NCBI GenBank assembly: GCA_016717115.1
Contig: JADKGE010000003.1
Span: forward strand, 85,037-149,036
Length of the DNA: 64,000 nucleotides
Source of the DNA: Actinomycetota bacterium
GTDB lineage: Bacteria; Actinomycetota; Actinomycetes; S36-B12
Reading direction: 5' to 3'
The position numbers were made by a program, and so were the translations under genes. Below, piece after piece: positions 1,110 through 26,454 of this stretch. The notes beneath the pieces were generated by a model. The model was not told the DNA's origin. It saw nothing but the letters and a program-made list of their open reading frames with translations, and did not search any database. Every line of letters begins with the position of its first letter. The first letter of the stretch is position 1.

Positions 1110-1515
1110 GGGGTGCTGAGGTCCAAGTCGGAAACCGGACAGTTCTACGCATGAACTCTCACCCTTTCCGTCGCCCTTTCTCCCTGTCGCTCGGTGTGCC
1201 TGAGTGTCACTCGGTGTCACGAAACCTGTTGATAGGCAACAAGTCCTCGAGGCGAATCCATGCGTTCGGGCAGTCTCGTAATGCGTAGGTCCGGGGTGGG
1301 AGGAGCGATAGCGACGGTTCCCCGAGGCGGCCCTGACTGAAAGTTGTTGGGCTGCAACGACTTTCTGCACTTCGCGGAACTCGCGCCTGCGTCGGAATTG
1401 ACCGATTTGATTCGCCCTTCCGCCCGGACCTCGAGTCGCGCCCGAATTCGGTTCGCCCTTTCCCCCCTTTGGCCGGAGTGATACGCGAGTCGATGACGTG
1501 AGGGGTTGTCACAGA
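1110..1515 (+). repeat. Structured intergenic element, copy A (left module like copy B, core and loop like copies D and E)
   Basis: Positions 1168-1290 align at about 80% with 4962-5095. Core GTCTCGTAATGCGTAGGTCCGGGG-[23 nt]-CCCCGAGGCGGCCC lies at 1273-1333, and its loop TGGGAGGAGCGATAGCGACGGTT recurs at 18958 and 24347. An 8-bp hairpin lies at 1342-1362. No consistent reading frame. Confidence 0.75.
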
Positions 1516-1639
1516 CTCGCCCGCGCCTTCCGCCAGCCACCGGGCGATCCACCGTCCGCCTGTGCCATCCAAGGATCGGTGCGATGCGGGGAGACAGTTC
1601 GCGCGGCGTTGTCACGGCGCTGTCGGGAAGGATGGGGGC

Positions 1640-2269
1640 ATGAGTGCCGCTGGCAAGCCCGTTCGGCGTGGACCGCGACGCCGAGAAGGTGCTCCGTCAG
1701 GCCCTGACGAGGTGCGCAACGCCGTTCTGGATGCGGCCGCGACCCTCTTCGCCTTGCGAGGCATCGACGGGGTCTCGCTTCGCGACGTCGCTGCCGAGGC
1801 GGATGTGAACTTGTCGCTGATTCGTCGATACATCGGAAGCCGGGACGATCTGATCGACGCCGTGTTCGCGCATGTGTCCGAGCAGCTGGCTGAGGCCGTG
1901 GCCGAGCATCCGCTGGCCGGGCAGGGGCACTCTCCGGACACGGTGATGGGCAAGTGGGTGCGCATCGGGGCGGCGCTGGCGATATCCGGCCGGCCCATGT
2001 CGTCGGATGCCATCCGCAACCCGGTGCAGGCGATCGCCGATAGCGTGGTCGCCGGCTACGGCCTGTCGACGGAGGCGGCACGGGTCCGCGCCACGCAGAT
2101 CGTGGCGACGGCGCTCGGGTGGCGCATCTTCGAGGCGTACCTGGTGGACGCTGCCGGTCTGGGCGACATACCGGTGGAGGTGCTGCGCGAGGAGCTCGTG
2201 CGCTCCGCCCGGCGACTGGGCGCGACACCGTGGCCGTCCCCTCCGGACCCGCCCGTCCTCGGCACCTGA
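1640..2269 (+). CDS. TetR/AcrR family transcriptional regulator
   Basis: ATG at 1640. The N-terminal HTH VRNAVLDAAATLFALRGIDGVSLRDVAAEADVNLSLIRRYIGSRDDL is a classic TetR_N. Confidence 0.85.
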   Translation: MSAAGKPVRRGPRRREGAPSGPDEVRNAVLDAAATLFALRGIDGVSLRDVAAEADVNLSLIRRYIGSRDDLIDAVFAHVSEQLAEAVAEHPLAGQGHSPDTVMGKWVRIGAALAISGRPMSSDAIRNPVQAIADSVVAGYGLSTEAARVRATQIVATALGWRIFEAYLVDAAGLGDIPVEVLREELVRSARRLGATPWPSPPDPPVLGT

Positions 2270-2325
2270 CACTGGACCAAAGCCCTCCTCCTTCGCCGCG
2301 CAACGGCATCGGCTCGCCCATATCG

Positions 2326-2337
2326 TTGTGTACACAA
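2326..2337. promoter_or_regulatory. Perfect 12-bp palindrome TTGTGTACACAA, candidate TetR operator in front of the DszB-like gene
   Basis: Lies in a locally AT-richer stretch between the TetR stop (2269) and the next start (2376). An overlapping CACA-N4-TGTG lies at 2333-2344. Confidence 0.4.
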
Positions 2338-2375
2338 ACGTGTGCATTAGTCGGGACGAGTGGAGGGGCACGGTC

Positions 2376-3542
2376 ATGGCGGACAAGGTCGTTGATCTGA
2401 GCACGATCGCGTTGGACTGGAACGAGGTCTACTACACCAACTGCCCGCTGGTGTCCGCGAGCAACGTGGACCAGGAACTGGGGTGGACGCGTGAGGAGTA
2501 CAAGAAGATCGGGGTGAAGTACGCGTTCCTGCGCTCGGTCCGGGAGAACAACTGGTACCCGCACTACATCCACAACCTGGACAACCTGATCCGCTTCGGC
2601 GGCCTGTTCCCGCCGGTGGCGGTGCACGCAGACATCCGCCGAACCCGACTCCTCGGGGTCACCCATGCTCCGCACGAGGGCGGCGTGATGCTGGTGCGCG
2701 CCCGCGACGACATCTACCGGATGGCCGAACTGAAGGGCAAGAAGATCGGCCTGACGAAGAGTCTCAACACGATCAAGAACGACTGGTGGCGGATCCAGGA
2801 GGAGCAGGGCATCGAGCTCATGCTCCGCGTCAACGGGATGACCCGCGACGACGTCGAGATCGTGGAGTTCCCCTACCCGGACGACTGGTACGACAACCCC
2901 GCGATGCTCGACCCGATGGAGAACCCATCCGAGCTGTGGCTCAAGCGCGACCACAAGCACGACCTCGCGTTCCGGCCGTTGGAGACCGCGCTGGAGACAG
3001 GCGTCGTCGACGCGATCTACAGCCAGAGCAAGCCCTTCCAGCACCTGCAGGAGGCCACGGGCAGGTTCAAGGCCATCGAGGACCTGTCCCGCTACCCAGA
3101 CTGGACGCTGCAGGTCGCGAACATCCCCGCCGTCATCACCTGCACCGACGTGATGGCCGAGGAGCATCCCGAGCTCGTCGTGACGTTCATGAAGGGCATG
3201 ATCAAGGTCGGCCGCTGGGCGAACGAGCACAAGCACGCCGCCGCTGCCATCCTCGACAAGCAGACCTTCTACCTCGACGTCGAGGACACCTACCGCGGCA
3301 TCAAGGACATCGACATGGTGCCGAACCTCTCCCCGCAGAACCTCGTGTCAGTCGAGATCGGCAAGGACTTCATGCTCGGCCACGGCTACATCGCCAACGA
3401 CTTCGACGTCCACGAGTGGGCGGCGCCCGAGTTCCTGGAGCAGGCGGCCCGGGACCTGCTGGAGGAGGAATGGGCGAAGCGGTCCATGTCGCGCCTGCCC
3501 GAGGGCACTGAACTGCACGCCGGCACCACCCGGCTCGGCTGA
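2376..3542 (+). CDS. DszB-like (2'-hydroxybiphenyl-2-sulfinate desulfinase family) / SsuA-NMT1-fold protein
   Basis: ATG at 2376 with GGAGGGG upstream. YYTNCPLVSAS, IRFGGLFPP, RTRLLGVT and EWAAPEFLEQ parallel DszB YSNCPVPNA, TRFGGEIPP, RTRLLGIT and QWAAPEFLNN, and the catalytic-type Cys is retained. Confidence 0.6.
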   Translation: MADKVVDLSTIALDWNEVYYTNCPLVSASNVDQELGWTREEYKKIGVKYAFLRSVRENNWYPHYIHNLDNLIRFGGLFPPVAVHADIRRTRLLGVTHAPHEGGVMLVRARDDIYRMAELKGKKIGLTKSLNTIKNDWWRIQEEQGIELMLRVNGMTRDDVEIVEFPYPDDWYDNPAMLDPMENPSELWLKRDHKHDLAFRPLETALETGVVDAIYSQSKPFQHLQEATGRFKAIEDLSRYPDWTLQVANIPAVITCTDVMAEEHPELVVTFMKGMIKVGRWANEHKHAAAAILDKQTFYLDVEDTYRGIKDIDMVPNLSPQNLVSVEIGKDFMLGHGYIANDFDVHEWAAPEFLEQAARDLLEEEWAKRSMSRLPEGTELHAGTTRLG

Positions 3543-3551
3543 GCAGAGGGA

Positions 3552-3947
3552 ATGACGATGACCACCACCGCTGCCCAGATGATCGTCGACGCCAATGCCC
3601 GCATCCCGGGGGTGACGCCGGTCGAGGCGCATGACCGCCTCGCGGCGGGTACGTGCGTCCTGCTGGACGTTCGTGAGCCCACCGAGTGGGAGACCCACAT
3701 CGTGGGGGCCGTGCAGGTGCCTCGCGGCATCCTGGAGTTCCAGGCCGACCCGACGAGTCCCCGGCACAACGCCGCACTCACCCCGGACCGTCAGGTGATC
3801 GTCTTCTGCCGGTCTGGTGCGCGGGCGGCCCTCGCGGCCGCCACGCTCACCGACCTCGGGTTCACCGACGTCTTGAACATGACCGGGGGACTCACCGCGT
3901 GGAAGGAAGCCGGCCTGCCCACGGCCGACGTCCACGCCGACATCTGA
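3552..3947 (+). CDS. Rhodanese-domain sulfurtransferase
   Basis: VLLDVREPTEWE ... VIVFCRSGARAALAAATL ... GGLTAWKEAGLP. The active-site loop is CRSGAR. Starts 10 nt after the preceding stop. Confidence 0.85.
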   Translation: MTMTTTAAQMIVDANARIPGVTPVEAHDRLAAGTCVLLDVREPTEWETHIVGAVQVPRGILEFQADPTSPRHNAALTPDRQVIVFCRSGARAALAAATLTDLGFTDVLNMTGGLTAWKEAGLPTADVHADI

Positions 3948-3972
3948 CCATCCACACAACTAGGAGAGCTCC

Positions 3973-4356
3973 ATGTTCAACGACAACGGATCGTTCCTGC
4001 TCGCCCTTTTCGAGTTCTTCCTGTTCTTCGCCTGGTTCATGTGCCTGTTCTGGGTGCTGGGCGACATCTTCCGCAGCAGCGACATGGGCGGCGGGGCCAA
4101 GACGTTCTGGATCATCTTCGTGATCATCATCCCGTGGTTGGGCATCCTCGTGTACGTCATCGCCCGCGGCAAGGGCATGCAGGAACGCCAACTCGAGCAG
4201 GCCAAGGCCATGCAGGCTGCTCAGTCCGAGTACATCAAGTCCGTCGCCGGCAGTACCACGGCGACCGACCAGATCTCCTCGGCCAAGGCTCTCCTCGACC
4301 AGGGCGTCATCACGCAGGACGAGTTCAACGCCCTGAAGTCCAAGGCCCTCGCCTGA
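3973..4356 (+). CDS. PLDc_N membrane domain plus SHOCT domain protein
   Basis: The N-terminal hydrophobic segment FFLFFAWFMCLFWVLGDIF...WIIFVIIIPWLGILVYVIARG is PLD-nuclease-N type. The C-terminal LLDQGVITQDEFNALKSKAL is SHOCT type. Confidence 0.7.
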   Translation: MFNDNGSFLLALFEFFLFFAWFMCLFWVLGDIFRSSDMGGGAKTFWIIFVIIIPWLGILVYVIARGKGMQERQLEQAKAMQAAQSEYIKSVAGSTTATDQISSAKALLDQGVITQDEFNALKSKALA

Positions 4357-4419
4357 ATGGCCGTCGGGCCAGAGCCAGAGGGCCGGTGAAGGGAGGCGTC
4401 GTGCGGGTACCCTGCGGGC

Positions 4420-4752
4420 ATGGCTCCTCTTGACCGGATCACCCGCTCCATCGACGTGATGGGCGGGAAGCCGTGCGTGGGCCGCACCCGGGTAACGATT
4501 GGCACTGTGGTCGGCCTCGTCGCGGCGGGTACGTCGATCGCGGAGATCCTGGACGCCTACCCGTACCTGGACGAGCAGGACGCGATGCAGGCCCTCGCGT
4601 GCGCCGCTTGGCGAGTCGAGGAGATCGAGAGCCCGATGCCCCCGACCGCGAGATCCTCGAGCAGGCGCACCGCAACGGGCAGGTCATCCTCACCCAGGAC
4701 CTGGGCTTCGGCACCCCACTCGCTGTCGGGAGCCTGGCGACACCGAGCGTGA
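4420..4752 (+). CDS. DUF433 (antitoxin-like) protein; the frame runs on into the remnant of the partner gene
   Basis: GGKPCVGRTRVTIGTVVGLVAAGTSIAEILDAYPYLDEQDAMQALACAA is canonical DUF433. A native stop is expected near 4630 but is absent, so the C-terminal 40 aa are probably not native. Confidence 0.55.
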   Translation: MAPLDRITRSIDVMGGKPCVGRTRVTIGTVVGLVAAGTSIAEILDAYPYLDEQDAMQALACAAWRVEEIESPMPPTARSSSRRTATGRSSSPRTWASAPHSLSGAWRHRA

Positions 4753-4896
4753 TCCACTTCGGCGCCCAAGCGGTCCTGCCGAGGGATGTGGGCGAGCAAC
4801 TGCTCGCCGCCCTGGATGTGGCGCGCACTCACCTCGAGACCGGGTGCGCTGGTCACCGTGGATCCCATGAGGCCTCGGGCCACGGTCCTGCCCATC
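4644..4896 (+). pseudogene. DUF5615 / Mut7-C-like (PIN-type toxin partner of DUF433) remnant: N-terminally deleted and frameshifted
   Basis: Frame 1 reads REILEQAHRNGQVILTQDLGFG...SVIHF. After a +1 shift in the GGG run near 4841-4843 the next frame reads GALVTVDPMRPRATVLPI, the usual family C-terminus. There is no N-terminal 35 aa and no stop after LPI. Confidence 0.45.
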
Positions 4897-4904
4897 ACCA
4901 TGGA

Positions 4905-5200
4905 CGGTGCTCAGGCTCGGGCGGACCAGCCACGGAACGTACACATAGGTGCTCGCACTGCCCGTCGCCCTGTCTCCATGGCCCTCAGTGTCTCTGCGTG
5001 TCACTCAGTGTCACGAAACCTGTTGATAGGCAACGAATCCTGGAGGCGACCCCATGTGTGGGCGCAGTCTCCTAATGCTTATGTGCGGGGCCAAATCCCC
5101 GAGGCGGCTCCAGGCAAGACGGACATTCTGAAGGGCAACTGCCCAGGTCGTGGTGCGGGGAGGGTCGCCGTACCTGCCTGGTAGCGGCGAATTGACACTG
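4905..5200 (+). repeat. Structured intergenic element, copy B (left module like A, core and 3' modules like C)
   Basis: The core hairpin is CGGGG 5096-5100, loop CCAAAT, CCCCG 5107-5111, followed by AGGCGGCTCCAGGCAAGACGGACATTCTGAAGGGCAACTGCC. CCTGGAG 5039-5045 is complementary to CTCCAGG 5118-5124. A 3' hairpin lies at 5165-5190, then TTGACA at 5192-5197. Confidence 0.75.
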
Positions 5201-5511
5201 GGCGGGGTCAATGGGGTAGGCCAAGGTACGCGTCAGCCTTCAGGGTCCAATCCACGCGAGGCGGAACTCCGACAGCGCGACCGTCGTCAACTCGGCTCCG
5301 GTCGAGAGGAGAGGATGGACCGAACACCAACGGCAACTCTTGACTTGGCGGCAGGGGTCGGCCCACTCGCTCCTCTCCTGCAGGTTTGCCGCCATGCGGC
5401 GAGCCTTGGCCCCGCCGCGCGTACGGGGCGCACCCTGCGGGACCAGAGAAAGTCGGGCATACTGCCCGCGAAGCTGGAGACCCAGTCCGCCGAACTCGGC
5501 CGGAGGTACTC

Positions 5512-5851: not shown

Positions 5852-6073
5852 CCTCTGAGCAGGTCGCCTGGATCGCGGGGCCGAGGGCCTCGTTCCCATC
5901 TCCCGTGTCAAGAAGGTGGCATCCTCGACGTGCGATCGAACCCGAGTCCAAAAACCTAGGCACCCTCGACGTCTTCACCAGCAGTGGAGGCGGCCGGTCG
6001 CAGCGGGGTGCCGAGGGGCATACTCTGCGGCCCTGAGTGAGTTCTCGTGGCCGGAAGAGGAGGGTCGAGCCCC

Positions 6074-8359
6074 ATGAGGTTCCAGGCTTTCGTTGCCGTG
6101 ATCCGCCGGTACTGGGCGACGACACTCCTCGTGGCCATCGTGCTGGTCGCTGGAGTGGTGACCGGGGCGCTGTGGCAGGGCGTCGCAACAGGCACATCAC
6201 TCTTCGAGAACGTCGCCTACGGTCTGCCGGCGCTGCAGGCCGGTCGCTGGTGGACGTTCCTGACCGGGATGGCCTTCGCGCCGCAGCCGGTGCTGTACAT
6301 CCCGGTCCTCGTGCTCGTGGCCTGGGCGGCGAGCGTGTACGAGCGCCGCGTCGGTCACGTTCGAACCCTGGTGGTTGCCATCGGCGGCCAGGCCCTGGGC
6401 GCCCTGCTGACCGCACTGTTCTTGATGCCGTTCGACGAGAGTGGCTGGACCTGGGCACGCGACCTCGGCAACGAGTACGACCTCGGCATCTCCGCCGGTG
6501 GACTTGCCCTGGTCGGAGCGCTTACGGCTGTCATGCAGCCCATCTGGCGTACCCGCGTCCGCGTGGGAGTGTTCGCGTATCTCATCGCCATGGTGCTCAA
6601 CTCCGGGTTGCTGTGGGACGTCGAGCACGTCGTGGCGTTCACGATCGCCGTGATGGCGGGTCCCTACCTGGCGGGTCGCCGTCCGAGCAGGCCGGTGTTC
6701 AGCTTCCAGCGCCGCACCCAGCGGTCGCTCGTGGCGCTGATCATCGCGGTCACGGCAGTCACGTCAGTGATCGAAGGCATGTTCCCGGGGACGGGCGGGC
6801 CGTTCCAGTCCGAGGGCTCGGCGCAGCACTCGACAGGTTTCGGCCTGGGCTTCATCGTCGGGGCGCTCCTCCTGCTCGTACTCGCTGATGGCCTCAGGCG
6901 TGGGCGACGCGTGGCGTGGATTCTCTCGACGGCGTTGCTCCTGCTGACCCTCGCTGGGGCGATCGCCGCTGAGCCGAGTTCAGAGCGCACCGCCGACATC
7001 TTCCTGGCATCCGCTCAGCTCCTTCTTCTCCTCGTCACTGTCCGCGCGTTCAGTTCGCGCCCACAGCAGCGGGCCGTTCGCCGCCTGGGCAAGCGCGTGC
7101 TCGTCGGCGGGGGAATCCTCATCGCCTACACGGTGATCGGGGCGCTCGTCCTGCAGGACGACTTCGCCGATCAGACTCTCCTGGCCGGACTGTTCGTCGC
7201 CTCGCTCACGGTGCTGTGGGTGGGGGCACTGTTCATGCTCGTGGTGGGGCTGGTGTACTCCAGCCGCCGCCCGGAGTCCGGAGCGGATGACGACGTGCGG
7301 CTCCGCGAGTTGCTGCGCAGCAGCCCCTCCTCGAATATCGAGTGGATGCTGACCTGGAAGGGCATCTCGGTCTGGTTCTCGCGGGACGGCCAGACCGCCA
7401 TCGGGTACGAGGTCGTGGGCTCGGTGGCCCTGTGCCTCGCAGACCCCGTCGGGCACTTGGACAGACGACTGGCCGCCCTGCACGAGTTCGACGAGTACTG
7501 CTTCGCGAACGGCTGGATCCCCTGCCTCTTCGCCGCGAGCCAGGCGACCGCGGACATGGCGCCGGACCTGCGGTGGAAGGCGATCGAGGTGGCCGAGGAC
7601 AGCGTGATGTCGCTCGACAATGTCGAGTTCGCCGGGAAGTCATGGCAGGACGTGCGTACCGCGCTCAACAAGGCCGGCAAGCAAGACATCGAGCTGCTGC
7701 CCACCCAGTGGGCGGACTGCGGGCCGGTGTTCACCGACCAGTTGCGGGCCATCAGCGGCGAGTGGGTCGGTGAGAAGGCGCTGCCCGAGATGGGCTTCAC
7801 CCTCGGCACCCTGCGGGAGGCGGACGACCCGGAGGTACGCCTCAACCTGGCGGTAGGGCCGGACAAGACGGTCGAGGGGTTCACGTCATGGATGCCAGTG
7901 GCCGAGAACGGGGAGGTCGTGGGCTGGACTCTCGACCTGATGCGTCGGCGTGACACGGGGTTCAGGCCGGTGATGGAGTTCCTTATCGGCGCATCGGCAC
8001 GCCAATTCCACGAGGAGGGCTACCGTTTCATCAGCTTGTCGGCGGCTCCGCTCGCGAAGGCCCCGACGGAGCTGCAAGGCAGCAGCGACGAGCAGGTGCT
8101 GCAGAAGCTGCTGAACCTCCTGGGCACCGTCCTCGAGCCCTACTACGGATTCCAGTCGCTGTTCCGGTTCAAGGAGAAGTTCAACCCCGAGCACCGGCCG
8201 CTGTACCTCGTGTTCCCTGACGAGACCGCCCTGGCCGAGATCGGCCTGGCGGTGGCACGGGCCTACATGCCTGACGCCGGGCTCGTCGACTGGGTGCGGA
8301 TGGGCTGGGAGATGGTCGTACCGAAACACCCGGTACCCCAGTCAGGAGGCACCGCATGA
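6074..8359 (+). CDS. Aminoacyl-phosphatidylglycerol synthase (MprF C-terminal DUF2156 domain) fused to a polytopic N-terminus with a rhomboid-like segment
   Basis: The C-terminal 350 aa (IEWMLTWKGISVWFS...GWTLDLMRRRDTGFRPVMEFLI...YRFISLSAAPLA...YYGFQSLFRFKEKFNPEHRPLYLVF) match the LPG-synthase C domain. ATG at 6074 follows GGAGGG; GTG at 6047 is an alternative start. Confidence 0.75.
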   Translation: MRFQAFVAVIRRYWATTLLVAIVLVAGVVTGALWQGVATGTSLFENVAYGLPALQAGRWWTFLTGMAFAPQPVLYIPVLVLVAWAASVYERRVGHVRTLVVAIGGQALGALLTALFLMPFDESGWTWARDLGNEYDLGISAGGLALVGALTAVMQPIWRTRVRVGVFAYLIAMVLNSGLLWDVEHVVAFTIAVMAGPYLAGRRPSRPVFSFQRRTQRSLVALIIAVTAVTSVIEGMFPGTGGPFQSEGSAQHSTGFGLGFIVGALLLLVLADGLRRGRRVAWILSTALLLLTLAGAIAAEPSSERTADIFLASAQLLLLLVTVRAFSSRPQQRAVRRLGKRVLVGGGILIAYTVIGALVLQDDFADQTLLAGLFVASLTVLWVGALFMLVVGLVYSSRRPESGADDDVRLRELLRSSPSSNIEWMLTWKGISVWFSRDGQTAIGYEVVGSVALCLADPVGHLDRRLAALHEFDEYCFANGWIPCLFAASQATADMAPDLRWKAIEVAEDSVMSLDNVEFAGKSWQDVRTALNKAGKQDIELLPTQWADCGPVFTDQLRAISGEWVGEKALPEMGFTLGTLREADDPEVRLNLAVGPDKTVEGFTSWMPVAENGEVVGWTLDLMRRRDTGFRPVMEFLIGASARQFHEEGYRFISLSAAPLAKAPTELQGSSDEQVLQKLLNLLGTVLEPYYGFQSLFRFKEKFNPEHRPLYLVFPDETALAEIGLAVARAYMPDAGLVDWVRMGWEMVVPKHPVPQSGGTA

Positions 8360-9912
8360 CCGCCGAACTCGACGGCTTCGAGTTGCAGGCGGCGATCGGC
8401 TCCGCCGCGACCGCGTCCGGGCATCCGGTCCTGAACGCCGGTCGAGGACAGCCGAACTGGCTGGCCACACAGCCACGCGACGCTGCCTTCGTGCTCGGGC
8501 GCTTTGCCCTTCGCGAAGCACGTGCCTCGAGCACGCATCCCGAATGGGGAATGACCCCCAACAGCGAGGGAATCGCTGACCGCCTCGCTCGGTCACTCAG
8601 CTCGGACGAGTCGGAGGGCGCGGACTTCCTGCGCAGTGCCGTCGAGTACGGGGTCACCACGTTCGGCTTCGAGCCTGACGCGTGGGTGCACGAGCTCGCG
8701 CGGGCCGTGCTGGGCGACGGGTACCCGTCGCCCAACCGCATGTTGGCCCACATCGAGAAGGTGATGGAGCGCTACCTGGTGGAGGCCAGCGGGGCGGAGC
8801 AGGCGCCTGTCGGCACGTATCAGGTGTTCGGCACAGAGGGCGGCGCGGCCGCGATGGCCTATGTGTTCCGGTCGTTGCAGGAGAACGGAGTGATCCGGCC
8901 TGGCGACAAGGTCGCGATCGCCACGCCCGTCTTCACCCCCTACCTGCAGATTCCGGTGCTCGAGGACTTCGGGCTCGAGGTGGTGCCGATCCACGCTGCG
9001 CACAACAGCCCGTCACGGTTCACCGACGACGTACTCGACCAGCTCCTCGATCCCGAGATCAAGGTGTTCTTCCTCGTCAACCCGGGAAACCCAGACAGTC
9101 GCGCGGTCAGACCGGAACGGCTGCGCGCCCTGCGTGACCTGGTCACCGAGAACCGACCTGATCTCGTCATCGTTGCCGACACCGTCTACGCCACGTTCGT
9201 CGAGGACTTCCGGGGGATGCTGGCCGACCTGCCTCATCACGTCGTCAGCGTGCACTCATTCTCCAAGAACTTCGGTGCGACTGGTTCGCGACTTGGCTTC
9301 GTCGCACTCCACCGCGACCATGTCCTCGACCGGATCCTTGCCGGCCAGGACGAGGAAATCCGCCAGGTGCAGGCGGACCGCTACTCGTCTCTGACGTCGG
9401 ACGTCACGGCGCTGTCCTTCATGGCTCGGATGGTTGCCGACAGCCGCGAGGTGGCGCTGCACAACATCACCGGCCTGGCCACGCCCGATCAGCTTCAGAT
9501 GGCGTTCTTCGCGCTCGCGTACCTGATGCCCTCCGGGCGGTCCTACATCGCGGCGACGCGCGCCGAGCTGGCCGCGCGCGATGCCGCGCTCCGGGCTCCG
9601 CTGCAGATCCCGCCGCCTGGCGGTCAGGACAGCATGTACTACGCACTCGTCGACCTGCTGCAGGTCACCGAGGCGCTCTGCGGTCCAGGCGGAGTCGAGC
9701 GCCTGATGGCCAGTCAGACGCCGACGGCGATCCCGCTCAAGCTCGCGCAGGAGTACGGCGTGATCGTCCTGCCGGGTCAGCTCTACGGCGCGCACTCGTG
9801 GGACGTCCGCGTCTCGCTCGCCTCTCTGACCGTGGACGAACTTGGCCGCGTGGGAGCCGCGCTCGCCGCAGTGCTGACGGACATGGCAGGCCTACCGGTC
9901 CGAGGAAGGTAG
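8356..9912 (+). CDS. Aspartate 4-decarboxylase-like class I/II PLP aminotransferase
   Basis: The ATGA overlap with the preceding stop suggests translational coupling. LNAGRGQPNWLATQPRDAAF and the PLP-lysine block SFSKNFGATGSRLGF resemble the AsdA family. Confidence 0.65.
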   Translation: MTAELDGFELQAAIGSAATASGHPVLNAGRGQPNWLATQPRDAAFVLGRFALREARASSTHPEWGMTPNSEGIADRLARSLSSDESEGADFLRSAVEYGVTTFGFEPDAWVHELARAVLGDGYPSPNRMLAHIEKVMERYLVEASGAEQAPVGTYQVFGTEGGAAAMAYVFRSLQENGVIRPGDKVAIATPVFTPYLQIPVLEDFGLEVVPIHAAHNSPSRFTDDVLDQLLDPEIKVFFLVNPGNPDSRAVRPERLRALRDLVTENRPDLVIVADTVYATFVEDFRGMLADLPHHVVSVHSFSKNFGATGSRLGFVALHRDHVLDRILAGQDEEIRQVQADRYSSLTSDVTALSFMARMVADSREVALHNITGLATPDQLQMAFFALAYLMPSGRSYIAATRAELAARDAALRAPLQIPPPGGQDSMYYALVDLLQVTEALCGPGGVERLMASQTPTAIPLKLAQEYGVIVLPGQLYGAHSWDVRVSLASLTVDELGRVGAALAAVLTDMAGLPVRGR

Positions 9913-9922
9913 CCCCGGATGT

Positions 9923-11302
9923 TCAGGCGCGCGAGCGGGCGCGCTGTGCCTCCATGTGCACGTCGAACTCCTCGCGCCACGTCTCGCTAACCGCGATGCC
10001 ATTGCGCCGAGCCTCCTCGGTGCTGAGCTCGACCGGGAAGCCGTAGGTGTCGTAGAGGACGAACAGCTCGGCACCGGTGACGCCGGTGGCCCGGTGCCCC
10101 TTCAACTGCTTGATGCCCTTGCGAAGGGTCCTACGGAAGGCCTGCTCCTCCTTCGACAGCACGTCGATGACTGAGTCGGCGTGCTCGGAGACCTCGGGGA
10201 AGTGATGCGTGTAGATGCCGGAGATCGTCGGGACGATCTGGGGAAAGAAGTTCTCCTCCAGCCCGAGGTCGAACGCATACCGGGTGGCCCTGCGGATGAG
10301 CCGTCGCATGACGTAGCCCTGTGCCTTGTTGCTGGGGCGTACGCCGTCGACAGCGAGGAACGTGGCGCCGCGCAGGTGATCGGCGATGACTCGCATCGCT
10401 CGTGTCTCGTCCTCGTAGCGCTTGCCAGACAGCTCCTCGAGCTTCTCCACGATCGGCCACAGCAGCCCGATCCGGAAGACGTCGCCGGTGTTGATGGCTG
10501 CGGCGGCGATGCGGGCGAGGCCGCCGCCGTAGTCCACGTTGCGACGAGGCAGGGGCTCGAAACCGGTCTCGGTGCGTCGGTACTCCATGAAGACGGAGTT
10601 CCCCAGCTCGATGAAGCGCCCGCAGTCGCAGTTCTGGTGACAGTGTGGCCCGTAGGCTGGGTCGTGCTCGATGTCCGGGAAAAGGTAGAACACCTCGGTG
10701 TCTGGTCCGCCGGGCTCACCCACGGGCATGTCCTCTGCGGTGCCGCCGCGGCACCACCAATTCTTCTTGCCGTAGAAGGCGATGCGAGCGCCACCGGTGC
10801 CCTGCAGAGCAGCGTTCTCCTCGCTACCGAGTTCCACTTGGTCTGAGGAGATGCCAGCTGCCGTGAACAGTTCGGTCCAGATGCCTGCTGACTCGGTGTC
10901 CTTGGGAATGCCGTGGGCGGGGTCACCGATGAAGCAGGAGACGTAGATGCGCTCCGGGCTCAGTCCCACTCGCTCGGTGAGGAACGTCCAGAACTGCCTG
11001 ATCTGGACATCCTTGAAGTAGTCGCCCAGGCTCCAGCAGCCGAGCATCTCGAAGAAGGTGGTGTGACGGCTGTCGCCGACCTCCTCGATGTCCTGCACGC
11101 GCAGGCATGTCTGACTGTCGGTGAGACGCCGGCCATCGGGATGGTCCTGTCCGAGCAGGTACGGGAGGAGGGGCTGCATGCCGCTGCCCGTGAACAGGGT
11201 CGTGGGGTCATCCTTCGGAATCAGCGGAGCACGCGGGATAACCGTGTGGCCTTGCTCGGCCATGTACTCGAGAAAGGCACTGCGAATCTGATCGGCGTCC
11301 AT
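9923..11302 (-). CDS. Alanine--tRNA ligase catalytic-fragment paralog (aminoacylation plus tRNA-recognition domains only; no editing or C-Ala domain)
   Basis: From the ATG at 11302, MDADQIRSAFLEYMAEQGH...DDPTTLFTGSGMQ...HTTFFEMLGCWSLGDYFK...VIADHLRGATFL...PSNKAQGYVMRRLIRRA...LYDTYGFPVEL...MEAQRARSRA is collinear with E. coli AlaRS residues 1 to about 461 and stops there. Confidence 0.8.
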   Translation of the reverse strand: MDADQIRSAFLEYMAEQGHTVIPRAPLIPKDDPTTLFTGSGMQPLLPYLLGQDHPDGRRLTDSQTCLRVQDIEEVGDSRHTTFFEMLGCWSLGDYFKDVQIRQFWTFLTERVGLSPERIYVSCFIGDPAHGIPKDTESAGIWTELFTAAGISSDQVELGSEENAALQGTGGARIAFYGKKNWWCRGGTAEDMPVGEPGGPDTEVFYLFPDIEHDPAYGPHCHQNCDCGRFIELGNSVFMEYRRTETGFEPLPRRNVDYGGGLARIAAAAINTGDVFRIGLLWPIVEKLEELSGKRYEDETRAMRVIADHLRGATFLAVDGVRPSNKAQGYVMRRLIRRATRYAFDLGLEENFFPQIVPTISGIYTHHFPEVSEHADSVIDVLSKEEQAFRRTLRKGIKQLKGHRATGVTGAELFVLYDTYGFPVELSTEEARRNGIAVSETWREEFDVHMEAQRARSRA

Positions 11303-11660
11303 GAACCTATTCGACACTAGGCGTGGCCACCCTGTCAGACGATCCCACCACCGGCCGCCGCCGTCGTGACAATGCGTGCCCAGTTTGCGGGCTACTCGAA
11401 ACTCGACTAATCTCACGACCGATCAAGGGGGATGCGCACTTGGGGCGCCCCGCCAGGTTCAACTCCTGGGTCCTCCACAATGCGCCGCTGGCCGCCTGTG
11501 AGGCGGCCAGCGGCGTTGTTCGTAAGCATCCATGCTGGATGCCTTCTAAGTCGCATCCACTATGCGGCTCGCCGTGGGACCGCTGCACCTCGTCGACAGC
11601 CGACACCTCCCGAACGCGCACATCGAGAATGCGGTCGCAGCGCGAAGTCCTTGATATGAA
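11303..11660 (-). promoter_or_regulatory. Long structured 5' leader of the AlaRS-like gene (candidate attenuator or riboswitch-like element)
   Basis: A 13-bp perfect hairpin spans 11484-11514. GCATCC (11526), GGATGC (11537) and GCATCC (11553) allow mutually exclusive pairings. A CCAGG-N7-CCTGG hairpin lies at 11453-11469. GGGUGGCCACGCC on the minus strand lies 20-35 nt before the start. There is no convincing SD. Confidence 0.35.
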
Positions 11661-15383: not shown

Positions 15384-15626
15384 GCCTGTCCGGACTAGAT
15401 TCAATGGCTCTGGAGGGTTCGTCGTCCGCGCTGTCGCGTAATGCGTACGTGCGGGGTCCACATCCCCGAGGCGGCTCCAGGCAAGACGGACATACTGAAG
15501 GGCAAGTGCCCTGGTCGGGGCCGGACCAGCCGTCCGGTACGTCTCAGAGCGGGGAGCGGTGACCTTCTCCCCCGATCCAATGCGGACCGAGTCGCCGTAC
15601 ATCCGAGGTAGCGGCGAGTTGACATG
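15384..15626 (+). repeat. Structured intergenic element, copy C (B/C subtype)
   Basis: CTGGAG 15410-15415 is complementary to CTCCAG 15475-15480. The core hairpin is CGGGG 15452-15456, loop TCCACAT, CCCCG 15464-15468. A 45-nt block at 15469-15513 is about 93% identical to 5112-5156. A 3' hairpin lies at 15591-15617, then TTGACA at 15619-15624. Confidence 0.7.
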
Positions 15627-15758
15627 GGGGAATCCCCTGAGGAGGTCGCTGCGATCGAGCACGCGATCATTTCCAAGTTGATCGTGGCAGGCTTCGCCGC
15701 GGTGACCGTCACCTCGGTGATCGTCACCAGCATCATCGCGGGTGGCATCGGAGGCTGA
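15624..15758 (+). CDS. Possible 44-aa single-pass membrane peptide
   Basis: The ORF reads MGESPEEVAAIEHAIISKLIVAGFAAVTVTSVIVTSIIAGGIGG: an acidic N-terminus, one TM helix and a Gly-rich tail. Its ATG overlaps the TTGACA at the 3' edge of repeat copy C. No clear SD, so it could be leaderless. Confidence 0.3.
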   Translation: MGESPEEVAAIEHAIISKLIVAGFAAVTVTSVIVTSIIAGGIGG

Positions 15759-18854: not shown

Positions 18855-19110
18855 GGGCACCTGGGTGTCACTCAATGGCACGAGAGTCATTGATACGCAG
18901 AAGAACCCCAAGGGTGAATCCCTGCCTGGGTAGGTCTCGCAGTGCGTGGGTCCGGGGTGGGGAGGAGCGATAGCGACGGTTCCCCCCGGGCGGCCCCACA
19001 GGAAGGGGATTGCGCTGCAACGACTCTTGGCATTGCACGTTGGCAAGGTGAGCTTCGGACATAGCCGCTTGGTTTCGCCCTCGCGCCTTCCTTCGCTCTT
19101 TCCCGAGATC
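18855..19110 (+). repeat. Structured intergenic element, copy D (A/D subtype)
   Basis: GGTGTCACTC at 18864. The core GGTCTCGCAGTGCGTGGGTCCGGGG-[TGGGGAGGAGCGATAGCGACGGTT]-CCCCCCGGGCGGCCCC spans 18933-18996. CTGCAACGACT at 19015 and the TTTCGCCCT motif match copy A. Confidence 0.7.
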
Positions 19111-24324: not shown

Positions 24325-24390
24325 GCCGAGTGACGCGCCCGCGGGGTGAGGAGGAGCGCAGCGACGGTTTCCCGAGACGGCTCCACACTA
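24325..24390 (+). repeat. Structured intergenic element, copy E (core only, A/D-type loop)
   Basis: CGGGGTGAGGAGGAGCGCAGCGACGGTTTCCCGAGACGGCT (24342-24382) aligns with copy A 1292-1332 at about 36 of 41 positions. The stem-closing CCCCG is TCCCG here (G-U wobble). It lies between two minus-strand genes. Confidence 0.6.
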
Positions 24391-25647: not shown

Positions 25648-26454
25648 TCAGGCAGTGGCGGTGACGGCGGGACCCGGCGTTGCGGCCGCGCGGGCCCGGA
25701 CCGCGAGGATCGCGACCGCGCCGTAGTGCGTCGCGAACCCGACGAGCGTCATCGTGTGGAACGCCTCGTGGTAGCCAAAGGTGGCCGGGGCCAAGGCCGG
25801 ACGGTGCGTGCCGTACATGACGGCCCCCAAGGTGTACGCCGCGCCGCCCGCGGCCAGAAGCACGCAGGCCGTCGGCGAGACCGCCCATGCATGACGGACC
25901 CCGATCGCCCCGACCCACCCCAAGGCCACATAGCCGGCGGACGCCGTCCGGTTGGCCCGCCCCGTCGCTCGCAGGCCCGCTCCGACCGCTGCTGCCGCCC
26001 ACGCGGCCGGCAGCGCCCACCGAGTCGCGCGAGTGCTTGTCGTGTACGCCAGCACCGGGGTCGCGGTCCCGGCGATCAGTGCGTAGATGGTCGCGCGGTC
26101 CGCGCGGGACATGGCCTCCTGCGACGCGCGGGTCGCGGCGAACGTGTGGTACGCCGCGGACACGCCCAGCGTCGCCACGAGCGTCCCGCCATACAGCGCG
26201 ACCGGCCAGCGACGCCGGGGCGGCGCCAGGGCGACGAGGACGGCGGTGGCCGGGACCGCGGCGAGCAGGGCGTATGTGTGCTGGCGCCCGCGCCACGTCG
26301 GCTTCGCCACCCCGTCACCGCGGTGATCCGGGTGCGGGGCGGCGGACGGCCGCAGGGCCGCGCGGGCATGCGTGCTCAGGCCCGCCACCGTGCGCCGCCA
26401 CGCGGCCCGAGCCGCAGGCTCCGGCGACGAGGGCAGCCGCTCGAGGGAATCCAT
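25648..26454 (-). CDS. Hemolysin III / PAQR family membrane protein
   Basis: From the ATG at 26454: 7 TM helices with AAYHTF...MSRADRATIYALIAGTATP...GYHEAFHTMTLVGFATHY. Confidence 0.75.
   Translation of the reverse strand: MDSLERLPSSPEPAARAAWRRTVAGLSTHARAALRPSAAPHPDHRGDGVAKPTWRGRQHTYALLAAVPATAVLVALAPPRRRWPVALYGGTLVATLGVSAAYHTFAATRASQEAMSRADRATIYALIAGTATPVLAYTTSTRATRWALPAAWAAAAVGAGLRATGRANRTASAGYVALGWVGAIGVRHAWAVSPTACVLLAAGGAAYTLGAVMYGTHRPALAPATFGYHEAFHTMTLVGFATHYGAVAILAVRARAAATPGPAVTATA

Follow-up and report, generated by a model that had tools for sequence, protein, structure and literature searches.

Repeated hairpins at stacked integrase-less islets of an Actinomycetota bacterium are probably displaced 3′ halves of tRNA-Thr(CGT)

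The window, by which we mean the whole 64-kb stretch of DNA that was analysed, carries five copies of a repeat (A to E), all on the plus strand and all within its first 25 kb. Matches to the repeat are far above chance (3 versus 0.00 expected and, for a second pattern, 4 versus 0.05 expected). All copies are intergenic, lie between arms of the type found at the ends of integrative elements, and split the region from 1.3 to 24.3 kb into four islets of 3.5–10 kb each with ordinary cargo genes. Islet 1 (1332–5068) encodes TetR, NMT1-like, rhodanese, SHOCT, DUF433 and DUF5615 proteins; islet 2 a DUF4333 protein, an MprF-like protein, an aminotransferase, an AlaRS-like protein, a hydrolase and a TPR regulator; islet 3 YCII, DUF2568 and DUF4386 proteins; and islet 4 a phosphoesterase, GNAT, HxlR, a glyoxalase and an M28 peptidase. 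The islet genes are found on both strands and have their own regulators. No integrase or integrase remnant was found in the window by Pfam analysis of 50 ORFs, tblastn with four integrases from related loci or a motif scan, and ARAGORN found no tRNA gene in it.

Each copy contains a short stem, the 5′ strand of which (CGGGG) is unchanged in all five. The 3′ strand is CCCCG in A, B and C and TCCCG in E, where it forms a G-T pair, and lies inside CCCCCCGG in D. The stem encloses a loop of 23 nt in A, 6 nt in B (CCAAAT), 7 nt in C (TCCACAT), 24 nt in D and 23 nt in E. The positions of the copies, the stem and the loop lengths agree with the original prediction, which had described a non-coding core hairpin with a freely varying loop, kept as a structure rather than as a sequence motif.

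We find that this hairpin is a T-arm, and that its conserved stem is the T-stem of tRNA-Thr(CGT). We scanned 185,579 genomes, one per bacterial or archaeal species, with the pattern AATGCNTANGTNCGGGG-N4-30-CCCCGAGGCGG, leaving the loop unconstrained, and obtained at least 126 matches in at least 117 loci, nearly all of them in Actinomycetota. Every listed match is a tRNA-Thr(CGT) gene or a 3′ fragment of one, and complete genes (GCCGCCTTAGCTCAG...GCACTCGTAATGCGTAGGTCCGGGGTTCAAATCCCCGAGGCGGCTCCA) account for 74 of the 115 classifiable matches listed with a 7-nt loop. The intact genes, which lie in other loci, were identified as tRNA-Thr(CGT) by both ARAGORN and Rfam. Aligned to the gene, the repeat runs from the anticodon loop (CTCGTAA) through the 3′ strand of the anticodon stem and the variable loop (AGGTC) to the T-arm (CGGGG-TTCAAAT-CCCCG) and the acceptor 3′ strand (AGGCGGC). 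In A to D the tRNA identity begins at the anticodon loop, and 27 of 49 fragments elsewhere, among the matches listed, likewise begin exactly at CTCGT; in E it begins at the T-stem. Integrases that target tRNA genes have three recognised crossover subsites, namely the anticodon loop, the T-loop and the T-stem/acceptor junction (PMC4383910).

The copies differ in how much of the tRNA they retain. Aligned to intact tRNA-Thr genes, copy A (1275–1331, plus strand, as are all features given here) is identical at 22 of 22 positions from the anticodon loop to the T-stem 5′ strand (1275–1296) and at 12 of 12 positions in the T-stem 3′ strand and acceptor 3′ strand (1320–1331); between the two lies a 23-nt replacement of the T-loop, TGGGAGGAGCGATAGCGACGGTT (1297–1319). 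Copies B (5069–5112) and C (15435–15479) are decayed 3′ halves with T-loops CCAAAT and TCCACAT, each matching the gene at 13–14 of 17 and 21 of 21 positions: B has four changes in the anticodon and variable part and an intact T-stem and 3′ end, including CCA, and C has three changes in the 5′ part and an intact 3′ end. D and E are more decayed than A to C. Copy D (18936–18998) has a 24-nt T-loop replacement (18958–18981), three changes in the 5′ part and a 3′ strand changed to CCCCCCGGGCGGCCCCA. Copy E (24342–24385; CGGGG-TGAGGAGGAGCGCAGCGACGGTT-TCCCGAGACGGCTCCA) comprises only the T-arm with its 23-nt replacement and the acceptor 3′ strand, scores 42.1 bits with our sequence model R1, and is antisense to the two minus-strand genes that flank it. 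A functional tRNA has an acceptor 5′ strand, a D-arm and a cloverleaf with a 7-nt T-loop; here the tRNA 5′ half is missing from all five copies and the T-loops are altered. We conclude, with a probability of roughly 0.8, that the five copies are non-functional 3′ halves of tRNA-Thr(CGT), that is, att-site remnants of integrative elements that target this tRNA.

The loops themselves do not vary freely, as the original prediction had it, but are either the canonical loop, a decayed form, or one specific conserved sequence. CCAAAT and TCCACAT are one or two steps away from the canonical T-loop TTCAAAT and are probably decayed T-loops. The long loops of A, D and E (TGGGAGGAGCGATAGCGACGGTT, TGGGGAGGAGCGATAGCGACGGTT and TGAGGAGGAGCGCAGCGACGGTT) are the same conserved sequence with two or three changes. 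This module consists of GGAGGAG, a middle of 5–6 nt or a hairpin, and CGACGG, and it puts 20–24 nt in place of TCAAA. All eight long loops listed in the free-loop scan are the module (TGGGGAGGAGCGCAGCGACGGTT and close variants), and a second scan together with the sequence model yielded more than 40 distinct long-loop units across Actinomycetota. The pattern of the second scan demanded both boxes, so part of their apparent conservation in this collection is ascertainment. The hairpins in the middle, which are confined to some lineages, have unrelated sequences (CTCAC-GCA-GTGAG, TTCGCTC-GAATA-GAGCGAA, AACAAATCGC-N5-GCGATTGTGTT and AGTAATCAC-GGGA-GTGATTACT). Among the matches listed, 74 of 115 normal loops stand in an intact tRNA, versus none of the eight modules (p = 4e-4); presumably the module is kept out of working genes since a 23-nt T-loop would inactivate the tRNA. 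Some units are solo, lying directly 3′ of an intact tRNA-Thr and its terminator hairpin, at times in tandem (L148, L088, L129, L137 and L153). The module was not found in Rfam or in a literature search with sequence strings. It is an undescribed variant of ordinary att-site remnants, and it circulates among tRNA-Thr-derived junction sites in Actinomycetota. We also considered whether the boxes might come from the tRNA's own D-arm (GGGTAGAGC / GAGCGACGCA), a likeness too short for testing that we leave as a remark, and a kink-turn reading of GGAGGAG/CGACGG, which we dropped on inspection since the strands are off consensus.

What is conserved among the window copies is a segment, not a set of base pairs. 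In B and C together, 7 changes fall in the 34 nt of the anticodon and variable part versus none in the 42 nt of the T-stem and 3′ end (p = 0.002), which fits either a constraint on the T-stem/acceptor identity segment or a recent exchange of it. The closing G-T pair in E and the extended stem in D, to which the original prediction had drawn attention, are both present, but they are single changes in decaying copies and not compensatory. Compared with dinucleotide shuffles, the window copies folded no better (z = +0.76 for A, -0.14 for B, +1.37 for C, +0.73 for D and -0.16 for E). RNAalifold, a check that had been proposed with the prediction, gave -6 kcal/mol for 38 long-loop units and zero pairs with a double change, hence no covariation. 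In the same units 71% of T-stem cells were paired, against 71.3% with shuffled partners. Two of the five T-stem pairs were broken in 16–17 of the 38 sequences, with an unchanged 3′ strand and no compensation; the broken 5′ strands include CGAAG (L080, L132), CTGGG (L089) and GGATT (solo units). A stem that varies without compensation in a larger alignment is the outcome that the prediction had itself named as speaking against it.

These results bear on the view of the element as structured non-coding RNA or single-stranded DNA with a selected stem and a free loop, for instance a tRNA-like minihelix transcribed behind the tRNA or a regulatory leader for the genes downstream. The stem does derive from a structured RNA, the variable middle is often a clean hairpin, and the Y of CGACGG-YT pairs as G-C or G-U with GGGGAG, on this strand only. 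Moreover, an acceptor-like outer stem can form in some solo units, and these outdo their shuffles in folding (z = -3.7 and -3.9 for L137 and -2.8 for L056). Two features account for the stability of these units: the hairpin inserted in the middle, and pairing between the preceding tRNA's terminator and the repeated 3′ end. That outer stem occurs in a minority of solo units and is missing from most units, and where it occurs it is the terminator of the preceding tRNA, for which reason a tRNA-like minihelix was rejected. A riboswitch or leader RNA was likewise rejected: the element has no Rfam match at either the gathering or the E <= 10 threshold, and the genes downstream of the copies are unrelated (TetR, DUF4333, YCII, phosphoesterase). 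Together with the antisense position of E relative to both flanking genes, the shuffles, the absence of covarying pairs in 38 units and a T-stem that is unpaired in 29% of cells, as in the controls, these points make a selected structure very improbable. We found no evidence supporting one, and the element is to be dropped as a candidate structured RNA. The statement that it is a structure rather than a sequence motif is right only historically, the stem being a T-stem by descent, but present selection on it is unsupported.

The element is also non-coding, as had been predicted, and this is confirmed. In a 139-nt alignment of A and B, 26 substitutions are spread at 8–9 per codon position in every frame, and all six frames have a stop in at least one copy. 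The translations of the plus frames of B and C that accompanied the prediction are correct. We did not reproduce the further argument that 9 of 11 substitutions fall at codon positions 1 or 2 of an open minus-strand frame; B has two stops in the minus frame left open by A. A small ORF starting from the ATG in TAATGCG (MRTCGVHIPEAAPGK... in C) was rejected, as its frame shifts between B and C and it shows no codon-position bias.

The DNA on either side of the copies consists of recurring arms. At junction A, a left (P-type) arm (1140–1274) has 81–83% identity to 4952–5090 and 76% identity to 18860–18935; it contains the direct repeats TCACCCTTTC/TCGCCCTTTC at 1159 and 1171 and a second, decayed tRNA 3′ end at 1244–1260. 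The right (P′-type) arm of A (1332–1480) contains a hairpin, GAAAGTTGTTG-GGCTG-CAACGACTTTC (1339–1365), and the direct repeats TCGCCCTTCC at 1412 and TCGCCCTTTC at 1453. The family of this hairpin is also found 3′ of intact tRNA-Thr genes or fragments in other loci (L016, L027, L029, L030, L077 and L081). At junction B, the left arm (4934–5068) is of the same family as that of A, and the right arm (5113–5203) belongs to a second family, common with C, and terminates in GGTAGCGGCGAATTGACA; it has 88% identity to 15480–15520, its terminal block occurs again at 15592–15627, and related arms are present in L116 and L141. The right arm of C (15480–15627) is a member of this second family with an internal insertion. 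At junction D, the left arm (18860–18935) belongs to the family of A and B, with 76% identity to 1199–1275, and the right arm (18999–19105) contains a relative of the A hairpin (about 19003–19028) and a TCGCTCTTTC repeat at 19093. The left arms of A, B and D are thus homologous (135 nt), and the right arms are of two kinds, with one hairpin type shared by A and D and another type shared by B and C. A TCGCCCTTTC-like motif recurs at 1159, 1171, 1412, 1453, 4965 and 19093, on the plus strand only. In other genomes the same arm families adjoin tRNA-Thr genes or fragments, and every family has short direct repeats of its own (ATGCCCCGG, TAGCCCCA and others). The succession of left arm, core and right arm at one junction (P arm, core, P′ arm) matches the layout expected after tandem integration of two elements. 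Islet 1 begins with the hairpin-and-repeat arm and ends with an arm of the left family that bears the same repeat motif, and so has both att arms and zero recombination genes, like a cis-mobilizable element. We also observed that the arms are well preserved in islets devoid of mobility genes, which simple decay would not predict.

Comparison with related genomes bears on the left border of the array. In one relative (L158), similarity to the window ends at 1085, some 55 nt short of the left arm of A, and a 96% relative, compared by gene content only, has other genes past the same point (about 1085). This loss of similarity gives indirect support to copy A as a putative border. Metagenome contigs of the same species are collinear with the window, and no excised or alternative arrangement of its islets was seen among the related metagenome contigs, all of which are collinear.

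Elements with a tyrosine integrase that insert into a tRNA gene bring their own copy of the 3′ part of the target, and the outcome is a rebuilt tRNA gene at one end and a displaced fragment at the other. Elements of this kind, carrying their own tRNA-Thr 3′ part, would have produced the array by successive site-specific integrations or would have arrived already joined. The islets are probably remnants, or integrase-less passengers, of accreted elements targeting tRNA-Thr, which may have lost their own integrase or never had one; any movement of the islets would need an integrase in trans. The stem would have been kept by descent and would also lie inside the T-stem/acceptor segment, a usual crossover or identity segment. 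Integrase genes adjoin such sites in about fifteen other loci (including L012, L084, L094 and L144). Specifically, L144 has two tandem elements of one family with a long-loop copy between them, and each integrase reads towards the core.

Several observations count against reading the copies as att-site remnants. The anchor tRNA is missing: an intact tRNA-Thr is absent from the 64-kb window and from 5.9 kb upstream (L157), and no tRNA-Thr or fragment of one was found in the neighbouring contigs L156, L157 and L158. The missing integrase and the missing alternative arrangement count in the same direction. So do the leftmost junction, where an element-type arm takes the place of the expected tRNA 5′ half, the well-kept arms and the unexplained conservation of the module. 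Even so, the feature is of a known kind, a textbook by-product of integration into tRNA genes, and we remove it from the candidate RNAs; what is unusual is its context, stacked integrase-less islets whose anchor tRNA is not seen in the window plus 5.9 kb upstream.

The closest known counterparts of the copies as att-site remnants are the displaced 3′ tRNA fragments of islands, prophages and actinomycete elements (Islander, PMC4383910; Williams, 2002, cited there). These likewise carry the 3′ part of the target tRNA, and the five in the window share one orientation. As in such fragments, identity starts from the anticodon loop with a second segment at the T-stem/acceptor junction, short direct repeats lie in the arms, and integrases stand beside such sites in related loci. 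Unlike them, the window has no intact target tRNA or integrase within reach, has five copies in 24 kb, and carries a T-loop replacement in three of these. Islander, which requires an integrase in every island before it scores a tandem array, found 4 arrays of at least three among 3919 islands (PMC4383910). Partial tRNAs scattered as traces of older integrations have also been described in Prochlorococcus islands (bioRxiv 10.1101/2020.12.28.424599). The tycheposon islands of the same organisms resemble the window in that cargo is piled beside a tRNA, newer elements push older ones inward and degenerate remnants are left, but they belong to another phylum, use another target tRNA and have hallmark integrase and replication module genes not seen in the window (bioRxiv 10.1101/2020.12.28.424599). 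The tRNA-dependent lysogeny of actinobacteriophages shares with our case the host phylum and an element site that rebuilds no working tRNA, but has a common core of only about 10 bp and a replacement tRNA supplied by the phage (PMC10865867). The long-loop copies, by contrast, are never joined to a tRNA 5′ half (none of the eight listed), and the window has no phage genes or replacement tRNA.

Another parallel lies in the accretion of streptococcal CIMEs, gene sets with complete att arms and without recombination genes that stand in tandem with related elements. We take the islets of the window to resemble CIMEs in their att arms, their want of recombination genes and their tandem arrangement, mobilization in trans being putative. 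Unlike the sites of the window, the attachment site of CIMEs is not known to be a tRNA 3′ half bearing a modified T-loop. Integron attC sites resemble the repeat in having a conserved stem around a terminal part of very variable length and in separating gene sets within an array. We weighed the view that the copies are sites of this sort, folded as single-stranded DNA hairpins with a variable terminal loop and used by a dedicated integrase that shuffles promoterless cassettes. The stem with its unpaired purine-rich stretch and variable terminal hairpin, the single orientation of the sites and the integrase-less gene arrays are in its favour. The window, however, has no IntI or other integrase, R/L box symmetry of the attC type is not visible in the aligned units, the stem is not maintained, the islets are of 3.5–10 kb with several genes on both strands under their own regulators, and the normal-loop copies are plain double-strand att cores starting from the anticodon loop, derived from a tRNA. 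We regard integron-like sites as scarcely credible here.

Given that the copies are most probably att-site remnants, the long-loop module can be read in two ways. It may be a neutral passenger: the T-loop of one att site would have been rearranged once, long ago, and the product would have spread by element transfer and site recombination, persisting only since fragments are free of tRNA function. The exclusion of the module from every intact tRNA among the eight modules listed agrees with this, as do the want of both covariation and excess stability, the many arm families that adjoin it, as if sites exchange segments, and copy E lying antisense to both neighbours. On the other side, a GC-rich insert of 20 nt should decay, and the boxes are near-invariant even in the low-GC loci L088 and L137; insertions occur only at one position, between the boxes, with hairpins of at least four unrelated sequences. 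We consider a neutral passenger plausible, at somewhat less than even odds. Alternatively, the long-loop unit may be a functional alternative attachment site, derived from the tRNA-Thr 3′ end, at which elements or integrase-less cassettes would integrate and be exchanged while the tRNA is spared; the boxes would bind protein, and a spacer or hairpin would be tolerated between them. More than 40 units from high- and low-GC lineages retain the boxes while the adjacent T-stem 5′ strand decays, a conservation that is, however, partly ascertainment from the pattern of the second scan. The position of the solo units, straight after an intact tRNA-Thr and sometimes in tandem, also points to function, as does the combination of the module with many different left and right arms, from whose families it assorts independently. 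Small integrase-less islets lie in arrays between such sites not only in the window but also in L016, L029, L044 and L106, and the islets of L016 and L077 also lack an integrase. Against a functional site, no integrase is tied to the module in particular, the two boxes do not form inverted repeats, and their spacing of 5 to more than 26 nt is unlike the core of a tyrosine recombinase. A free attP would be expected in phages and plasmids, but the module has 0 matches in IMG/VR, and neither a long-loop copy nor the whole of junction A has a match in INPHARED phages or PLSDB plasmids; an origin as a phage or plasmid attP was rejected on these grounds. We hold a functional attachment site to be possible and, on balance, unlikely; it refines rather than contradicts the explanation of the copies as att-site remnants. 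More specifically, the long-loop unit could be the dedicated recombination site of an undescribed cassette system of Actinomycetota. Such a system would use an integrase encoded elsewhere to stack integrase-less islets, and to exchange them, at tRNA-Thr-derived sites, with the T-loop replacement separating cassette sites from the working tRNA. We think this improbable.

Taken as written, the original prediction would have meant a new structured non-coding element. What the locus offers in its place is a set of integrase-less islets with preserved arms, stacked at tRNA-Thr-derived sites, which are found in the window and, with smaller islets at the related loci, in several metagenome-assembled genomes of Actinomycetota. 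Such arrays would escape island finders that demand both an integrase and an intact tRNA. In addition, one T-loop replacement is common to distant lineages and excluded from working tRNA genes. If the module were a functional variant of the site, elements could reuse a tRNA-derived site without endangering the tRNA.

In five loci from other genomes (L148, L088, L129, L137, and L153), we found an intact tRNA-Thr followed by a terminator-like hairpin and then by one to three solo long-loop units, that is, T-arm copies in which the T-loop is replaced by a GGAGGAG-middle-CGACGG module. These tRNA-Thr and solo unit arrangements lie at L148 1371-1676 (minus strand), L088 2713-3271, L137 222-495, and L153 9334-9614, as well as in L129. 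The solo units read GGATTTG-GGAGGAG...CGACGGTTCCCCGAGGCGGC, and every unit has a separate hairpin; in none of the five loci did we find an element or integrase between the tRNA-Thr and the units. L088 additionally carries a tRNA-Thr with the anticodon AGT, which is uncommon among bacteria, approximately 300 nt upstream of tRNA-Thr(CGT) (genes 3199-3271 and 2830-2902, minus strand). In another locus (L106 1622-7485), four tRNA-Thr-like copies occur inside 8 kb, and two of these have nearly identical flanking sequences; of the four, ARAGORN recognizes just the last as a tRNA, and no integrase was detected in this locus.

Within the window, the element-type left arm of the junction around copy A, a leftover tRNA-Thr(CGT) 3' half, contains a second, decayed tRNA 3' end (1231-1260; TCCTCGAGGCGAATCCA vs TCCCCGAGGCGGCTCCA), suggesting that this arm took in a neighbouring site at some earlier time; the counterpart of this 3' end in the arm of copy B lies at 5025-5054. 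Immediately upstream of junction B, DUF433 and DUF5615 open reading frames overlap in different frames (4420-4870), an arrangement that resembles a toxin-antitoxin pair. A weak Guanidine-III riboswitch-like match at 25777-25829 scores 18.5 bits with E = 7.5, where the gathering score is 36, and is probably due to chance.

To the left of the window, the lineage of the window and an 88% relative carry a block of DsbD, ECF sigma, and anti-sigma genes, located upstream of a permease gene, in opposite orientations, the window's lineage having the inverted form (L157, which covers the 5.9 kb upstream of the window, vs L156). Since the surroundings of the permease vary in every relative examined, this region is very plastic.

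The integrase-less islet between copies B and C groups three genes (6047-11416): one for an MprF-like protein that contains an LPG_synthase_C domain (6047-8359, plus strand), one for an aminotransferase-like protein (8356-9912, plus strand), and one for a 497-aa paralogue comprising only the AlaRS catalytic core (9923-11416, minus strand). Together, these genes may form a self-contained aminoacyl-lipid module.
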